Shown piece after piece: positions 9,395 to 57,918 of a stretch of 64,000 bases of DNA. Numbering within the stretch: the first letter of the stretch is position 1; each line of letters opens with the position of its first letter. Source of the DNA: a phage; the sequence record PX667085.1; one strand, written 5' to 3'. Below the pieces are notes generated by a model. It saw nothing but the letters and a program-made list of their open reading frames with translations, did not search any database and was not told the DNA's origin. Made by a program: the position numbers and the translations under genes.

Positions 9395-9895
9395 ATGGCT
9401 AAAGTAGTAGATGAGTTTGATATGCTACGAGTCGATGAAGGACTGAAGCTTACTGTTTATCAAGACCATCTTGGTTATTGGACAGTCGGCATAGGACACC
9501 TTCTGACTAAAATAAAAGATAAAGCAAAGGCTATTCAAATCTTAGATAATCTTCTTGGTCGTAAGACTAATGGGGTTATCACAGAAAAAGAAGCCCGTCA
9601 AATCTTTGCTGATGATGTTGCAAAAGTGAAGAGAGACATAAAAAACAGTACTATCTTATCACCAATCTATGATAAGGTTAGTGATACTCGTAAATTGGGA
9701 ATAATCAACATGGTTTTCCAGTTGGGGTTAAAAGGTGCTGAAGGGTTTCAAAATAGCTTGACTTTAATCAGCAATGCATATTATACTCAAGCAGGTAAAA
9801 ACATGCGTAAAAGCCGATGGTATAGCCAGACGCCAAACCGTGCTGAACGAGTAATTAAAGTTCTGACTTCTGGAACTTTAGATGCTTACAACTAA
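9395..9895 (+). CDS. e: endolysin, T4 lysozyme family (muramidase)
   Basis: EMLRVDEGLKLTVYQD..YWTVGIGHLLTK...INMVFQ...KSRWYSQTPNRAERVI aligns by eye with T4 gene e lysozyme along its length. Confidence 0.9.
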   Translation: MAKVVDEFDMLRVDEGLKLTVYQDHLGYWTVGIGHLLTKIKDKAKAIQILDNLLGRKTNGVITEKEARQIFADDVAKVKRDIKNSTILSPIYDKVSDTRKLGIINMVFQLGLKGAEGFQNSLTLISNAYYTQAGKNMRKSRWYSQTPNRAERVIKVLTSGTLDAYN

Positions 9896-9896
9896 T

Positions 9897-9915
9897 AAAG
9901 GGGCTTCGGCCCCTT
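9897..9915 (+). terminator. intrinsic terminator
   Basis: AAAGGGGCTTCGGCCCCTT hairpin. Confidence 0.6.
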
Positions 9916-9932
9916 CTAAAAGGAGTGCTACT

Positions 9933-10691
9933 ATGGGAAATAAAACCGCAGCTAAAACACAACGGCAGAAACTGGCTAATTCAGCAAAGATTGAAAGCCG
10001 TTATGCAGCAAAAGCGGTAGGTAATGACGATTACCGTTTAGATGAATTTATGCCTGAAGGGGACCAAAATAAGATTGTTCAAAGCATGATTTGGAATGAT
10101 CTGACTGTTGTAAATGCTCCGGCAGGGACTGGTAAAACCTCTGTTGCTTTATGGAAAGCTTTGCAGATGCTTCGTTCAGGAGACTTCCGTAAACTACTTT
10201 TTATCAAGAACCCTACTGAAGTCGGAGATGATCAGATTGGTTTCTTGTCGGGGGATAAAACAGATAAACTAGCAGCACACTATGAATCTACAAAACGTAT
10301 TTTCCAGCAATTCATGACAGCCAACAAATTGGAAAACGATATTGGATCAGGTAAGATCGAATTGAATATTCCTAACTATTTGTTAGGGGCTACCCTGGAT
10401 AATACAATCGTCATTATTGACGAAGCACAACTTATGTCAACAGAAACACTTAAACTTCTTATTGAACGTGCAGGTATTAATACGCATGTTATTGTATTAG
10501 GCGATGTTCGCCAGACATATGCAATTAAAAAACGTAGCAATGGTCTGCATCAAATTTTAGAACTTTTATATCCAGAAAATGAAGAAGGTGTTCGTGAGCC
10601 AATTGTAGATTTTATTGGATACGTTGAACTGACAACGGACGATAATAAACGTGGACGTTTGTCTAAACTGATTACTGAAGTGTTTATTTAA
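9933..10691 (+). CDS. phoH: PhoH-like ATPase
   Basis: Walker A NAPAGTGKTSVAL; start moved to ATG after the terminator hairpin. Confidence 0.85.
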   Translation: MGNKTAAKTQRQKLANSAKIESRYAAKAVGNDDYRLDEFMPEGDQNKIVQSMIWNDLTVVNAPAGTGKTSVALWKALQMLRSGDFRKLLFIKNPTEVGDDQIGFLSGDKTDKLAAHYESTKRIFQQFMTANKLENDIGSGKIELNIPNYLLGATLDNTIVIIDEAQLMSTETLKLLIERAGINTHVIVLGDVRQTYAIKKRSNGLHQILELLYPENEEGVREPIVDFIGYVELTTDDNKRGRLSKLITEVFI

Positions 10692-10726
10692 TAACATGGC
10701 AGGGAAGCCATTTATAAGGAGGATTG

Positions 10727-11227
10727 ATGGGTGTAGCAACAATAGCTATCGGAAGAAGCGGTATAGATGAGTGCTATCAAACGGGACTCGTAAAACCTAA
10801 CGAATTTCGTCAAATTTGTGTAAACCATATTGAAAAAGAGATTGCTCTTACTTTAGAGAATATGACCCTCCGAGATAAACTGGAAATGTTTAAATGTTGG
10901 TGTCTAGGAGAAGATTGGCTTTTAAACCATTTTCAAGAACTTTCTGATAGTAAAGAAAGCTTGTTTGATTGTATAATAGGAATAGCTGGCTCCGATCCTA
11001 GCCTTCTGCACATAACAGAAGAAGAGGCGAAGTTACTGTTCTTAAGTAATTTGTTTAATAAGAAAGCACTGCTTGTTCGTGATTGCAGTGATCTTCTTAA
11101 TAACCCGCTCGCAACGTCTGATCAAATTTTTGTTGACAAAGAGACACTACGTGCGATAGAATACATCTGCAAATACGTGAATGGCGGGAAAGCGGTTCTT
11201 AAAACATTAACAGAGGAGGAAGAATAG
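10727..11227 (+). CDS. hypothetical protein
   Basis: ORF with RBS AAGGAGGA. Confidence 0.55.
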   Translation: MGVATIAIGRSGIDECYQTGLVKPNEFRQICVNHIEKEIALTLENMTLRDKLEMFKCWCLGEDWLLNHFQELSDSKESLFDCIIGIAGSDPSLLHITEEEAKLLFLSNLFNKKALLVRDCSDLLNNPLATSDQIFVDKETLRAIEYICKYVNGGKAVLKTLTEEEE

Positions 11228-11919
11228 TGACGACAATTATTGCAACCAAAAATAAGATTTTGAGTGACGGTAAGGTAACTTTTGGTGGACGTGTAGATTC
11301 TATTAATTTCAAAAAGGTCCGAAAAATTGGAGATTACCTTGTAGGTGGTGCTGGTCGTCTGACATCCGTGCTTTCTTTCTTTCAATGGTTTGAACAAAAT
11401 CTACAGTGCGAAGCAGCACGTGATGCTGTCCCTGGTTTGATGATTCACTCTGATCCAGATAAAGAAGATGAAGAGTTTATTGCACTTGTTGTTCATCCAG
11501 ACGGACGTATTTTCCTGCACGAAGGTAACAACCCAACACGTGCATATCCGATTGATGAAGAATATTATGCAGTAGGGAGTGGGTCAGATTTTGCTTTAGC
11601 TGCTCTTGATGCAGGGGCAACACCAGAACAGGCTATGGAAGTAGCTAAAAAGCGAGATGCTTTTTCTGGTGGTGAAACATTTATTGAAGAACAAGACGAG
11701 ATTATTGAATTAACAGATGATGATTTAGAAAACTTCTCCAAAGAAGAATTGATCAATCTTTTGAAATTCGGTAATCCCTACGGTGAAGAAGAACCTCGTA
11801 ACGTGGCAGGTAACGAGGCGGATACTGAAGAAAAATCTGTTGCAGAAAACAACTTGACTTCTAAATCTGAAAATATTAATCTCGTAAATGTGGCGGATTT
11901 CGAAGAAACCGCTATTTAA
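11227..11919 (+). CDS. HslV/proteasome-like Ntn-hydrolase with acidic C-terminal tail
   Basis: Begins M-TTIIATKN (Thr right after Met), GGAGR and YAVGSGSDFALAAL resemble HslV; GTG start after GGAGGAAGAA. Confidence 0.5.
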   Translation: MTTIIATKNKILSDGKVTFGGRVDSINFKKVRKIGDYLVGGAGRLTSVLSFFQWFEQNLQCEAARDAVPGLMIHSDPDKEDEEFIALVVHPDGRIFLHEGNNPTRAYPIDEEYYAVGSGSDFALAALDAGATPEQAMEVAKKRDAFSGGETFIEEQDEIIELTDDDLENFSKEELINLLKFGNPYGEEEPRNVAGNEADTEEKSVAENNLTSKSENINLVNVADFEETAI

Positions 11920-11925
11920 CAAACT

Positions 11926-11946
11926 GCCCCTTCGGGGGCATTTCTT
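11926..11946 (+). terminator. intrinsic terminator
   Basis: GCCCCTTCGGGGGC hairpin then ATTTCTT. Confidence 0.6.
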
Positions 11947-11964
11947 AAACATAGGAGATTAATA

Positions 11965-13389: not shown

Positions 13390-13584
13390 ATGCAGAGCGG
13401 AGAAGAACTTTTAGAGAAACAATTCTCAACGCGTCAACAAGCTTTAAGTTATATGGTTTTTCTAAGCAATCTTGATGTGAATGAGATACTTTTACGGCGC
13501 GAAGGTAATTTCTGGAGCGTTAAATATCATGCAACAAGGTCTGTAATCTACCTGGAAGAGGCGGAATTCTCTTTGGTAGAATGA
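13390..13584 (+). CDS. hypothetical protein
   Basis: 64-aa ORF, RBS AAGGAGGG. Confidence 0.5.
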   Translation: MQSGEELLEKQFSTRQQALSYMVFLSNLDVNEILLRREGNFWSVKYHATRSVIYLEEAEFSLVE

Positions 13585-13598
13585 TCCGAGGAGTAGTT

Positions 13599-14171
13599 AT
13601 GCGTTCAACTTTCACTGGCAAAATAAATGCTGGTTTGATTTTTACAGCAGTAAGCATTCTTAGCAAAAAGTTTAAAGTTGTTAACTTACCTGTGTGTGTC
13701 GATTTCGATCATGTTTTTGATCCTTCGAACCCCACTCGTTGCATAGTAAGGAGTAATGTTGAAAACCCAACAGAAAATCTTTTTTATGTAACAAAACCAT
13801 CTCAAAGCATACTTAACCAGGTTGAGGCGAAATTGATACCTAACGGTAAATATTACTCCTTTTTACCTTGTAAGTCGGTTGAAGTAGAGAATAGCAATAC
13901 TTTCGCTAATAACTTGTCTGTATTCGTTTTCTTTGTTTCACAGGAAGACGAAACAGATGAAATGGTAGCAACAGTGAGATCACTTTATGACTCTTTAGGG
14001 GTTGTTTATAGTCAACAAGTGTGCGAAAATAATAAAGCCTGTGTAGATTTCATTATCAACGGTATTTGTGTTTGTAGAGTAGAATCTTTTTGGCTGCACG
14101 ATACATATGTGACTGTAGCAGAGGTTATATCTGAACCAAGATTTAGTCATGCGGTTTCGTTAATAATTTGA
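13599..14171 (+). CDS. hypothetical protein
   Basis: ORF; internal ATG with RBS GAGGAG chosen. Confidence 0.5.
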   Translation: MRSTFTGKINAGLIFTAVSILSKKFKVVNLPVCVDFDHVFDPSNPTRCIVRSNVENPTENLFYVTKPSQSILNQVEAKLIPNGKYYSFLPCKSVEVENSNTFANNLSVFVFFVSQEDETDEMVATVRSLYDSLGVVYSQQVCENNKACVDFIINGICVCRVESFWLHDTYVTVAEVISEPRFSHAVSLII

Positions 14172-56778: not shown

Positions 56779-57918
56779 TCAGAACACGCTACCCAGTGTA
56801 GTGGAACGTTGTGTTACAGGCTCCAGCACCACTCGCAGAGTGTTTCCTGGTGTAGTGCTCATCACCAGAATCTTACCACCTTCAATCAGATCACAAGTTA
56901 GACCATCAGCAGTTGCACACAGATCAATATGTGGATCGCCATCTTCATCCAGGATAACATAACTGTTGGTTTCCATTGCTTCCACTTCATCATCTTTCAA
57001 ACTTTGTAGATAGATGTTCAGGGAACAAGCACCCGACAAAAACTTAGTAGGGGTGAAGTCGTGCCAGTTATTGATCCAATTCACCTTCAAGGTTTTGCCA
57101 TTAGCTACGATAGAAGCCACATTCCATTTAGCATCGTTCCCTAAAGAAATACCCATCATTTCAAGACATTCTTTAAAAGTCATTTTTGGATAGAAATTCA
57201 ATTCTTCTACAATGCCTTGAATAACATCGAAAGACAACTCTGTGCTAACATCCCATAAACGTTGGAAGTTATCTACGTGCTTTTTATTTACCAAGTTCTT
57301 ATCCAAGTAATCTAACATAGTTTCACTAGATAGTTTATCGTAATTGAAACTGTAGTAGATACGACTAGGACGGTTTACAAAATATTCCGAGATATAGCCA
57401 CTATTTTTAGTGAGGATGTAAAGTTTATTCCCACTTCCTGTTCCATCCAACAAGGTCAACAGTGCTTCCTGATCTTCTTTCTTAGCGTACACTTTATCAA
57501 ATTCGTCAAATAAAACAACAGCACGATCTGTAATTTTACTCATAAATTCTAAGAAGCCAGCATCTGTGTAAGGCTGTGTAACCAAAATGGTTGGAATACC
57601 TAAACCTTCTGTGGACATTAGAGACATGCTAATCAGTTTAGCTAACATCGTCTTACCACTGCCCTTTGTCCCTGTCAGTAACACCCCAGTATTTTTACCT
57701 TCTTTACTACGACGAGCAAATGTTTTAATAACATGTGCGGCGCGGTCTTTAGTTTCCCCATAAAGAGTGTTCGGAAGAGAGAAACTTTCGCCACGCACTA
57801 AAGAGTAGTTACCGTGCGGATCGCAGTTGACAACCCAAACTCCAGCAGGAAGTTTATTAGCTTCAACACCATATTCCTTATTTACAACAGCCACATCTCC
57901 AAAAATAGTGTATTTCAT
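56779..57918 (-). CDS. AAA+ family ATPase
   Basis: Walker A GTKGSGKT, Walker B VVLFDEFD. Confidence 0.65.
   Translation of the reverse strand: MKYTIFGDVAVVNKEYGVEANKLPAGVWVVNCDPHGNYSLVRGESFSLPNTLYGETKDRAAHVIKTFARRSKEGKNTGVLLTGTKGSGKTMLAKLISMSLMSTEGLGIPTILVTQPYTDAGFLEFMSKITDRAVVLFDEFDKVYAKKEDQEALLTLLDGTGSGNKLYILTKNSGYISEYFVNRPSRIYYSFNYDKLSSETMLDYLDKNLVNKKHVDNFQRLWDVSTELSFDVIQGIVEELNFYPKMTFKECLEMMGISLGNDAKWNVASIVANGKTLKVNWINNWHDFTPTKFLSGACSLNIYLQSLKDDEVEAMETNSYVILDEDGDPHIDLCATADGLTCDLIEGGKILVMSTTPGNTLRVVLEPVTQRSTTLGSVF

Follow-up and report, generated by a model that had tools for sequence, protein, structure and literature searches.

A compact proteasome-like threonine peptidase of probable PPH type with a two-part C-terminal tail in a Phapecoctavirus genome

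Introduction

Proteasome homologues of phages were catalogued by Fuchs et al. (2021), who described the family PPH (proteasome homologue of phages and their hosts), with members of about 140 residues in tailed phages and prophages. The lack of both helix H2 and a propeptide is a trait of PPH and of a second family of the same survey, RPC, which is reported only from Proteobacteria and whose C-terminal addition is without a match among known structures. No co-occurring AAA+ protein was found in that work (Fuchs et al. 2021). The Betaproteobacteria proteasome homologue (BPH; PDB 5ovs/5ovt) forms a tetradecamer, has an acidic pore loop and no unfoldase partner, and showed no activity on standard substrates (Fuchs et al. 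2017, JBC). In HslV, the pocket for the C-terminal tail of the unfoldase HslU is formed by Phe54, Phe57, Ala79, Lys80 and Gln114 (PMC6429459), and a basic pore cluster, Arg86/Arg89/Lys90, follows helix H2 (PMC5777263). In the literature searched, we found neither a report assigning a function to phage proteasome homologues nor biochemical data on PPH-type proteins.

The gene described here lies in record PX667085.1, of which a stretch of 64,000 nucleotides (hereafter the window) was analysed, and whose source is a Phapecoctavirus, a phAPEC8-type phage of E. coli. Its family is already known, and the same gene has been annotated as 'peptidase HslV family' in several deposited Phapecoctavirus genomes. 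The name 'ATP-dependent protease subunit HslV' used in databases claims more than is known for this PPH-type homologue; nothing found here points to ATP dependence.

Results

The gene (Table 1) is placed in the early/middle nucleotide-metabolism block of the phage, about 28 kb away from the genes for head and tail, these being on the opposite strand. Its GTG start shares one base with the TAG stop of the upstream frame up167 (TAGTG). The promoter match within the 3′ end of up167 is a match to the consensus only, in a region that holds no more such sites than shuffled sequence would lead one to expect. In the Schickermooser phage, a 'terminator' feature is annotated somewhere within the matching 3.5-kb stretch. 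E. coli K-12 MG1655 was the isolation host of two close relatives, phages nieznany and alia.

Table 1. Features of the peptidase gene and its upstream neighbours, in window positions.
Feature	Positions	Strand	Remarks
PhoH-like P-loop ATPase	9882..10691	+	PF02562, E 1.2e-36; phrog_170; first gene of an apparent PhoH-up167-peptidase unit
up167	10724..11227	+	phrog_14834, function unknown; all-helical; stop overlaps the peptidase GTG
Sigma-70-like promoter match TTGACA-18-TAGAAT (11/12)	11133..11162	+	65 nt 5′ of the GTG, within the 3′-terminal part of up167
Shine-Dalgarno GAGGAGG	11213..11219	+	7 nt 5′ of the GTG; direct sequence reading
CDS, proteasome-like (PPH-type) Thr peptidase	11227..11919	+	230 aa; GTG start, TAA stop
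Thr2 codon	11230..11232	+	predicted N-terminal nucleophile (Thr1) once Met is removed, a presumed step
Catalytic core domain, residues 1-155	11227..11691	+	AF2 pLDDT >90, Foldseek, invariant columns
Acidic loop VPGLMIHSDPDKEDEE, residues 68-83	11428..11475	+	in place of HslV helix H2 and basic pore cluster
Conserved start of the extension, residues 150-182	11674..11772	+	strand exit ETFIEE and two-helix motif LTDDDLENFSKEELINLLKFG
Distal tail, residues 183-230	11773..11916	+	predicted disordered; acidic, hypervariable
Terminator-like hairpin TGCCCC-TTCG-GGGGCA, then TTTCTT	11925..11947	+	right after the stop; consensus match only

The product belongs to the proteasome/HslV superfamily of Ntn hydrolases, MEROPS T1. 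Its matches to phrog_1040, 'peptidase HslV family' (residues 1-229, E 4.5e-63), to Pfam PF00227 (25.6 bits, above the gathering score of 22.4) and to the HslV of T. maritima (1m4y, E 4.9e-9) are all far above chance, and HslV chains are its best sequence matches among solved structures. The AlphaFold (AF2) model contains an alpha-beta-beta-alpha sandwich core with pLDDT above 90, whose first strand spans residues 3-6, and Foldseek matches this model to HslV, BPH and 20S beta subunits at a probability of 1.0. HslV 6kui gives an E-value of 1.7e-10, and BPH 5ovt, the second-best fold match, one of 3.4e-10, although the similarity to BPH in sequence is insignificant (5ovs, E ~1). The structure prediction called for when the gene was first noted thus agrees with a fold of this superfamily. 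However, the protein scores 32.2 and 31.4 bits against the NCBIfam HslV equivalog models NF003964 and TIGR03692, whose cutoffs are 137 and 157.75, and for this reason it is not an HslV orthologue: from the original prediction of an HslV/proteasome-like Ntn hydrolase, the superfamily holds, through PF00227 and the fold, but not HslV in the strict sense.

The core motifs of the protein are Asp14, Lys30, GGAG (40-43), GSG (117-119) and RDxFSGG (143-149), the last of which may resemble Asp166/Ser169 of 20S beta subunits. Met1-Thr2-Thr3-Ile4, Asp14, Lys30 and Gly117-Ser118-Gly119 are invariant in all of the 61 relatives aligned, down to 25% identity, and Thr2, Asp14, Lys30 and Ser118 align with Thr1, Asp17, Lys33 and Ser124 of HslV. 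Gly40 and Gly43, at the positions of HslV Gly45 and Gly48, are kept in 57 and 60 of these relatives, respectively. The MTTIIATKNK start, the GGAGR segment (residues 40-44) and the segment YAVGSGSDFALAAL (114-127), from which the protein had been recognised, are all present as described. Their reading as an Ntn hydrolase with an N-terminal threonine nucleophile, exposed after Met removal, is sustained by the invariance of this threonine and its alignment with HslV Thr1, Met removal itself being presumed; the same alignment, where a loss of the Ntn catalytic residues was looked for, keeps them unchanged in the 61 relatives. The absence of a propeptide follows from the M-T start of 133 of the best 150 library representatives. 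In all, the active site is predicted to be catalytically competent.

In the AF2 model, DSSP assigns a single helix H1 (45-67) and the next helix only from residue 120, leaving residues 68-83 as a loop where helix H2 would be expected. Nothing corresponds to HslV Arg86/Arg89/Lys90, and this stretch is acidic instead (DPDKEDEEF): among 52 tail-bearing relatives, Asp81 is present in all, position 82 is Glu or Asp in all, and position 83 in 51; D81-E82-E83-F84 is essentially invariant. Beyond the tail-bearing relatives, the closest sequences in the library are proteins of 128-155 residues, the size of PPH. With its acidic loop and its lack of a propeptide and of helix H2, the protein has a PPH-type build, an assignment made from described traits. 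No second proteasome-family subunit, such as some Aeromonas phages have, was found within the window, and the PADLOC models of anti-phage defence gave no match.

It had also been suggested that the phage peptidase hijacks HslU, its rings docking on the unfoldase of the host to give an ATP-dependent protease with a specificity chosen by the phage. The E. coli host does have HslU, the N-terminus MTTII is close to the MTTIV of E. coli HslV, and HslV chains lead the sequence matches among solved structures. Some of the HslV surface is retained as well, with the MTTI N-terminus, Arg35/Arg36 as R32/K33 and the pocket residue Phe57 as a conserved F52. Against this stand the score far under the HslV equivalog cutoffs and the loss of H2, the source of pocket residues Ala79 and Lys80, whose positions are variable when mapped by sequence. 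Moreover, Phe54 maps to L49, Gln114 to Asp, Asn or Lys, and Lys28, which we take to be another HslU pocket residue, to Ser, Gln or Thr, whereas acidic residues take the place of the basic cluster at the pore, which is remodelled when HslU binds. The residues for HslU docking thus appear mostly not conserved, and the subfamily, present in phages of Vibrio, Aeromonas and Shewanella, gives no sign of tracking the HslU of its hosts.

A phage-encoded unfoldase was searched for in the complete 151-kb genome NC_052662, where no Clp/HslU-type protein is annotated and where the domain scan covered the three proteins labelled ATPase or ATP-binding. The only AAA protein, gp041 (window 56782-57918, minus strand; PF00004, 29.9 bits), lies 45 kb from the peptidase gene and weakly resembles Rix7 and VCP (E ~1e-3). 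Its relatives occur in phages of Enterococcus, Bacillus, Staphylococcus and Lactobacillus, with a clamp loader label in 2 among the 40 matches listed, and none was found in the peptidase-carrying phages of Vibrio, Caulobacter and Rhizobium; gp041 was set aside as a partner because its distribution across phages differs from that of the peptidase. No unfoldase co-distributed with the peptidase gene was found and, since the docking residues also appear mostly not conserved, the hijacking of HslU is unlikely.

The extension after the core, residues 156-230, contains 21 Asp/Glu against 5 Lys/Arg in 75 residues (net charge -16), and E. coli HslV ends at about residue 160 of the query in the alignment. 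The acidic tail absent from HslV that had been noted at the outset is therefore real, but it is not simply acidic, as its first 30 or so residues make up a conserved two-helix element, with helices at 164-169 and 172-181 in the AF2 model (pLDDT 86-90). The consensus of this motif is LTxExLxxFSKEELinLL. In a set of 15,393 ORFs, a motif HMM matched all HslV-like genes of more than 200 aa, at about residues 157-202, and no other ORF; of the best 150 library representatives, 49 have the motif, which appears to be confined to a phage-restricted subfamily. The idea of a portable docking module was dropped, given that the HMM matched only peptidase genes among those ORFs. A Pfam search with the tail alone gave nothing significant (best DUF7167, E 0.1).

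The distal part of the tail shows pLDDT values below 50 at residues 194-214 and a mean pairwise identity of 0.10, against 0.70-0.73 for the core. Its charge is better kept: the whole extension is net negative in every relative with a tail of more than 28 residues, and the part C-terminal to the motif in 46 of the 49 library representatives that have the motif. The C-terminus was also considered as a cis copy of the activating peptide of HslU (NVADFEETAI in the query, LVADEDLSRFIL at the end of E. coli HslU), a likeness that can be put down to chance, because relatives at 82-86% identity end in DEATSN and FENPAS.

Such a long acidic and disordered tail could mimic nucleic acid, and the protein might serve as a decoy that sequesters HslU or, through this tail, a DNA-binding protein, or might carry out ligation or amide hydrolysis in the manner of connectase, a ligase of the same superfamily (Fuchs et al. 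2021). The lack of measurable protease activity of BPH in vitro would also suit a non-proteolytic role. However, strict invariance extends to all catalytic residues, the oxyanion Gly and the GSG among them, which argues for catalysis, and the distal tail is not conserved in sequence, which is atypical of a specific mimic. The signature of connectase, an insertion between strands S3 and S4 (Fuchs et al. 2021), has no equivalent in the model, where only a short turn joins the third strand to the fourth. Uses of this kind seem quite unlikely to us.

A further candidate for a motor is found next to the gene: in a new ATP-dependent protease made from three co-transcribed genes, the PhoH ATPase could replace the AAA+ unfoldase, with up167 as an adaptor of the peptidase. 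The three genes are flanked by a promoter-like site at 9758-9787 and by the terminator-like hairpin proper (11925-11940), the sole site of its kind on the plus strand around them, and the stop of up167 overlaps the peptidase start. In every locus with an HslV-like gene longer than 190 aa, PhoH is at most 8 kb away, and none was detected near shorter ones; in one locus (L030) the order of PhoH and peptidase is reversed and the genes are still close. The up167 gene stays adjacent to the tail-bearing peptidase gene in relatives down to about 46% identity. In phage VEcB, a single in-frame deletion fused PhoH residues 18-133 to the peptidase from residue 63 onward, with loss of sequence across all three genes at once. 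The finding of no co-distributed unfoldase would also leave room for such a motor. However, the whole phage group has in common an extended run of collinear genes (NrdAB, glutaredoxin, lysozyme, PhoH, X, peptidase, methylase or phosphatase, resolvase), so the adjacency of PhoH and peptidase is explained as inherited synteny. PhoH relatives are linked to RNA metabolism rather than to protein unfolding, and up167, for which no recognisable fold relative was found, is missing from the Shewanella, Vibrio and Aeromonas lineages. PhoH was set aside as a specific partner, its proximity being part of that collinear run, which is seen in four further lineages, and we regard a PhoH-coupled machine as very unlikely.

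Relatives of the peptidase occur in 236 deposited phage genomes and 291 viral contigs, and the proteasome-like fold is shared by at least 46 viral structure representatives. From these 46 representatives and 236 genomes, phage proteasome homologues can be regarded as a common accessory of large phages. The tail-bearing subfamily has members in phages of Vibrio, Aeromonas and Shewanella, and its sequences come from phage or viral contigs only. A scan of 185,579 species genomes with one narrow peptide pattern, and thus of limited recall, returned only tailless BPH-like matches and one 425-bp contaminant contig. VEcB, of the genus Justusliebigvirus, which is related to Phapecoctavirus, is viable although the catalytic N-terminus is gone, and the gene is therefore dispensable, an accessory not required for plaque formation. 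A role as prohead protease in virion maturation is scarcely credible. In its favour, the peptidase is phage-encoded, no prohead protease is annotated in the head module, and the gene of 371 aa that separates the portal gene from the head-decoration genes there belongs to phrog_2970, a family without assigned function. However, a viable phage lacks the catalytic N-terminus, the peptidase gene lies among early/middle metabolic genes, some 28 kb from the head genes and on the other strand, and the prohead proteases known to us have folds other than the proteasome-like one.

Discussion

The reading that we favour, with moderate confidence, is that of a compact phage proteasome-like threonine peptidase of the PPH type that is not an HslV orthologue, works independently of HslU and carries a two-part tail. 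Regarding ring assembly, activity, HslU independence, substrate class and the role of the tail, we infer the following. The methionine aminopeptidase of the host would strip Met1 and bare the threonine nucleophile, with Asp14, Lys30 and Ser118 completing a site of the proteasome type. Judging from HslV, a dodecamer of two hexameric rings, and from BPH, the subunits would most likely assemble into a double ring that encloses the active sites. Neither HslU nor a dedicated AAA+ partner would most likely be needed, given the loss of H2 and a conserved acidic loop like that of BPH, itself a putative unfoldase-independent protease, and the substrates would be unfolded or basic peptides or proteins. 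The two-helix element would be an integral extra part of the core that is peculiar to this subfamily, with a probably structural or gating role, whereas the disordered and almost always acidic arm could plausibly act as an electrostatic filter or recruitment arm, considering that other lineages carry extra domains at this place.

A bolder version, which we hold to be improbable, would make the helices and the acidic arm a built-in regulator that replaces the unfoldase or, in its most radical form, would see in PhoH and up167 a non-AAA+ motor. The helices would then fill the inter-subunit groove, the site of the C-terminal helix of HslU in HslVU, vacated by the loss of H2. If so, the ring would be held active, the acidic arms and the pore would select basic, unfolded host proteins, and the phage would gain an ATP-independent means of destroying host proteins during takeover. 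In any case, the compact HslU-independent peptidase that we favour offers a convenient test case, with a tail-bearing subfamily suited to truncations and VEcB as a natural knockout.

Compared with the known systems, the protein shares with HslV (ClpQ) the fold, the Thr1/Asp17/Lys33/Ser124 set, the GxAG oxyanion loop and a near-identical N-terminus, and differs from it in a core about 20 residues shorter, the lack of H2, the acidic residues at the pore position, the absence of an adjacent hslU and the C-terminal extension. With BPH, which is of HslV descent, it has in common the acidic segment at the pore position and the lack of a partner unfoldase, whereas BPH keeps H2, has a long pore loop, ends without a C-terminal tail and is encoded on bacterial chromosomes. 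Like RPC (published representative WP_140207863), it combines a PPH-like core devoid of H2 with a C-terminal extension of unknown fold; unlike RPC, known only from Proteobacteria, its tail-bearing form comes from phage and viral contigs, in a comparison made by published description. The closest likeness in build is to PPH (published representative WP_042125023.1), with which it shares the phage location, the M-T-T start, the lack of H2, the full Thr/Asp/Lys site and the lack of an associated AAA+ gene, a likeness judged from published traits and size. It departs from PPH, with its roughly 140 residues and no C-terminal addition, in having a 155-residue core followed by a 75-residue extension with a two-helix motif.

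Identity of the peptidase

The gene is real, and the original prediction of an HslV-like Ntn hydrolase reads it correctly: the MTTII start (MTTIIATKNK), the GGAGR (residues 40-44) and YAVGSGSDFALAAL (residues 114-127) segments and the acidic extension are all present in the translated ORF. The peptidase passes the cutoff of the Pfam 'Proteasome' model (PF00227; 25.6 bits vs 22.4), matches phrog_1040 over its whole length (E 4.5e-63) and has HslV chains as its closest solved relatives by sequence (1m4y, E 4.9e-9), in agreement with membership of the proteasome/HslV superfamily. In an alignment of 61 sequences, with identities down to 25%, the Ntn catalytic residues are conserved: M1, T2, T3, I4, D14, K30, G117, S118 and G119 are among the invariant columns, and the peptidase's invariant residues align with Thr1, Thr2, Asp17, Lys33 and Ser124-Gly125 of E. 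coli HslV. Such invariance of the entire catalytic set argues, from sequence, for an active enzyme. When 1.84 billion proteins were searched exhaustively, 133 of the 150 best representatives had an M-T start, which indicates that the family has no propeptide and would expose its Thr nucleophile through Met removal; E. coli HslV itself has a similar N-terminus, MTTIV.

The likeness to HslV holds for the superfamily, but not as orthology. Two NCBIfam HslV equivalog models give 32.2 and 31.4 bits, against cutoffs of 137 and 157.75. The AlphaFold model (mean pLDDT 84.9; core > 90) has a single long helix (45-67), and a loop (68-83) takes the position of HslV helix H2. Absence of H2 separates the PPH and RPC families from every other proteasome homologue, and the non-HslV, non-beta families share the lack of a propeptide (Fuchs, Alva and Lupas 2021, PMC8665760). 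After the tail-bearing relatives, the exhaustive search ranks mostly proteins of 128-155 aa, the size of PPH, while Foldseek retrieves HslV (6kui, 1.7e-10), BPH (5ovt, 3.4e-10) and archaeal/eukaryotic beta subunits on roughly equal footing. From these scores and neighbours, and from the lack of both H2 and propeptide, as in PPH, we conclude that the peptidase is not HslV but a PPH-type proteasome homologue, an assignment made by described traits and by the size of its neighbours.

Coordinates of the peptidase gene, its local signals and related loci
Feature	Location	Strand	Remarks
Promoter-like site	9758-9787		consensus match only
PhoH-like ATPase	9882-10691		upstream of up167
up167	10724-11227	+	phrog_14834
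Promoter-like site	11133-11162	+	consensus match only
Ribosome-binding site GAGGAGG	7 nt 5' of peptidase GTG	+	read from sequence
Peptidase ORF	11227-11919	+	230 aa, GTG start
Terminator-like GC hairpin and T-rich tail	11925-11940	+	3' of peptidase
phrog_4806 match	13581-14171	+	196 aa
gp041 counterpart	56782-57918	-	identical to gp041 of NC_052662
Copy-like gene of the phrog_4806 match	NC_052662 28535-29089		
VEcB fusion CDS vecB_055	L086:2165-2968		MT932211; natural in-frame deletion
Tandem proteasome-family genes	L025:7432-7983, L025:8001-8882		IMG/VR UViG_2974586258
Small ORFs 5' of peptidase	L003:3326-3523, L028:7328-7522, L029:3789-4013		Vibrio-type loci

Occurrence in phages

Phapecoctavirus genomes (phAPEC8-like, subfamily Stephanstirmvirinae) match the 3.5 kb around the gene at 99.3-99.5% identity. 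Several of them label the gene as 'peptidase HslV family', 'HslV family peptidase' or 'ATP-dependent protease subunit', and others as 'hypothetical protein'. It is a member of a catalogued family (phrog_1040; the 2021 PPH-type homologues), and public genomes already carry it with a label. The present analysis adds that it is not HslV, that it most likely works without HslU, that its tail starts with a phage-specific two-helix element, and that it is dispensable. Relatives occur in 236 deposited phage genomes by tblastn, including phages of Escherichia, Vibrio, Caulobacter, Aeromonas, Klebsiella, Rhizobium and Shewanella, and a pattern scan of IMG/VR confirmed 291 viral contigs. A 425-bp contig assigned to 'Lysobacteraceae bacterium JHOS43' (JAPMLR010000072.1) encodes residues 68-208 at 100% amino-acid identity, and is most likely a phage contamination of the bacterial assembly.

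Two proteasome-family genes stand in tandem in an Aeromonas-type phage contig (L025), where a 183-aa BPH-like protein (MTCIIALRDK...; PDB BPH 5ovu, E 4.1e-5, residues 2-169) directly precedes a 294-aa tail-bearing homologue. Another contig, L027, is arranged alike, a hint that the assembly may have two subunits in some phages. In the window, by contrast, the gene is single and no second member of the family was found.

Genomic context and dispensability

The peptidase lies in a series formed by a glutaredoxin-like ORF, a T4-type lysozyme, the PhoH-like ATPase, up167, the peptidase, the terminator-like hairpin, an unknown ORF and a DNA methyltransferase. Its GTG shares one base with the TAG stop of up167 (TAGTG), and both ORFs are translationally coupled. 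The promoter-like site located 65 nt before the peptidase start, in the 3'-terminal part of up167, is near-consensus (TTGACA, 18 nt, TAGAAT; 11/12 match to sigma-70), which suggests that the peptidase may also be transcribed alone. The up167 protein has a confident all-helical model (AF2 pLDDT 92), with Cys14, Cys118 and a KPNE motif invariant; no sequence or structural relatives were detected, and the homologues found are all of similar size and from similar phage contigs. Downstream, a small ORF matches phrog_4806, 'histidyl tRNA synthetase', a label also carried by a copy-like gene in NC_052662, and which looks doubtful for such small proteins.

PhoH is found within 8 kb in every locus with an HslV-like gene longer than 190 aa, and tblastn detected it near none of those of 190 aa or less. 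However, this linkage is explained by inherited synteny and is not taken as evidence of partnership, an improbable reading, since a NrdA-to-resolvase block is common to divergent lineages. The three with upstream flank carry NrdA, NrdB, glutaredoxin, lysozyme (or another glycoside hydrolase), PhoH, one or two unknown ORFs, the peptidase, a methylase or phosphatase, and a resolvase, in an order identical in Shewanella phage 1/4; the contig of a fourth begins shortly before the gene and shows only the phosphatase and resolvase that follow it.

Escherichia phage VEcB (Justusliebigvirus), an isolated viable phage, has a single 267-aa CDS ('hypothetical protein' in the record; PhoH-domain-containing in UniRef) in which PhoH residues 18-133 are fused to the peptidase from residue 63 on. 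Half of PhoH, the whole of up167 and the part of the peptidase with Thr1, Asp14 and Lys30 are lost in the deletion, and therefore the PhoH-up167-peptidase cassette is accessory and the peptidase dispensable. This deletion rules out that the peptidase is essential, for example in head maturation, and so does the location of the gene, which is separated from the head and tail module by about 28 kb and lies on the opposite strand. The PADLOC defence models gave no match, and a literature search turned up no experiments on phage members of the family.

The C-terminal extension

The acidic tail absent from HslV was borne out in its charge (21 acidic vs 5 basic residues in 156-230; net -16), but the extension is not uniformly acidic, as its proximal part is a conserved two-helix element. 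In all relatives with the extension, the last core strand exits as ETF(V/I)EE, followed by a rough motif, (L/I)(T/S)xExxxx(F/L/M)(S/T)(K/R)E(Q/E)L(L/I)x(L/I)(L/I)xxG, modelled by AlphaFold as short helices (164-169 and 172-181; pLDDT 86-90) before a disordered stretch (pLDDT < 50 at 194-214). Among 15,393 ORFs, taken from about 90 phage loci and the window, a motif HMM matches only HslV-like genes: all those above 200 aa, always around residues 157-202. Among the top 150 library representatives, 49 carry the motif (177-350 aa, median 259), whereas the median of the remainder is 151 aa; the extension is wholly absent from short PPH-type forms. Small ORFs of 64-74 aa preceding the peptidase in Vibrio-type loci share a pattern, YSRExLEYS...G...L..S.EELF..L., faintly resembling the motif; the HMM gave no significant match to them (E 0.64).

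Across 47 close relatives, sequence conservation falls from the core (mean pairwise identity 0.70-0.73) through the motif region (0.44) to the distal tail (0.10). Net charge of the extension is -2 to -32 in every relative with a tail longer than 28 residues, and the post-motif part is net negative in 46 of the 49 representatives; other lineages add distal domains (Cys-rich segments, a conserved KWRLHNA end, a helical HNIGIEKLR end). The helical element, fixed in position and family-specific, reads as an integral addition to the core, and the distal arm as selected for charge and flexibility, not sequence. In the scans run, the tail-bearing form is restricted to phages, since 185,579 bacterial/archaeal species genomes yielded only tailless BPH-like proteins and the phage-identical 425-bp contig. 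C-termini of the superfamily point away from the rings, and a fifth C-terminal helix stabilises ring stacking in proteasomes and Anbu (Fuchs et al. 2021, PMC8665760); by analogy, the extension could either face outwards or stabilise stacking.

Unfoldases and comparison with known systems

That the peptidase hijacks host HslU, as suggested, looks unlikely. [quoted passage not shown] In the phage family, Phe57 is retained (F52), Phe54 is replaced by Leu, Lys28, Ala79, Lys80 and Gln114 vary, and the basic cluster has no counterpart. In its place, the segment DPDKEDEEF precedes strand 84-89, with D81 (52/52), E82 (E/D, 52/52), E83 (E/D, 51/52) and F84 (52/52) conserved in tail-bearing relatives. 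Judging from sequence and the monomer model, canonical docking of HslU looks unlikely, and the peptidase most likely makes no use of it.

The annotation of the complete relative NC_052662 lists no gene of the Clp, Lon, FtsH or HslU type. Its gp041, a 379-aa AAA-domain ATPase (PF00004, 29.9 bits; phrog_2376) adjoining an HNH-type endonuclease, was rejected as the unfoldase: it lies 45 kb away, resembles Rix7/VCP/Afg2 ATPase domains weakly (Rix7 and VCP at E about 1e-3) and does not track the peptidase. Its relatives, among the matches listed, are mainly in Firmicutes phages (Enterococcus, Bacillus, Staphylococcus, Lactobacillus), some labelled clamp loader, and none in peptidase-carrying Vibrio, Caulobacter or Rhizobium phages.

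A co-occurring AAA+ protein was likewise not found for PPH-type families (Fuchs et al. 2021, PMC8665760). BPH also has no unfoldase, and its pore loop is acidic (PMC5777263), a feature that the conserved acidic segment of the peptidase shares, in contrast to the basic cluster of HslV. By analogy with BPH, the phage enzyme would be a self-compartmentalised, unfoldase-independent Thr peptidase, whose acidic pore and arms would favour basic or unfolded substrates.
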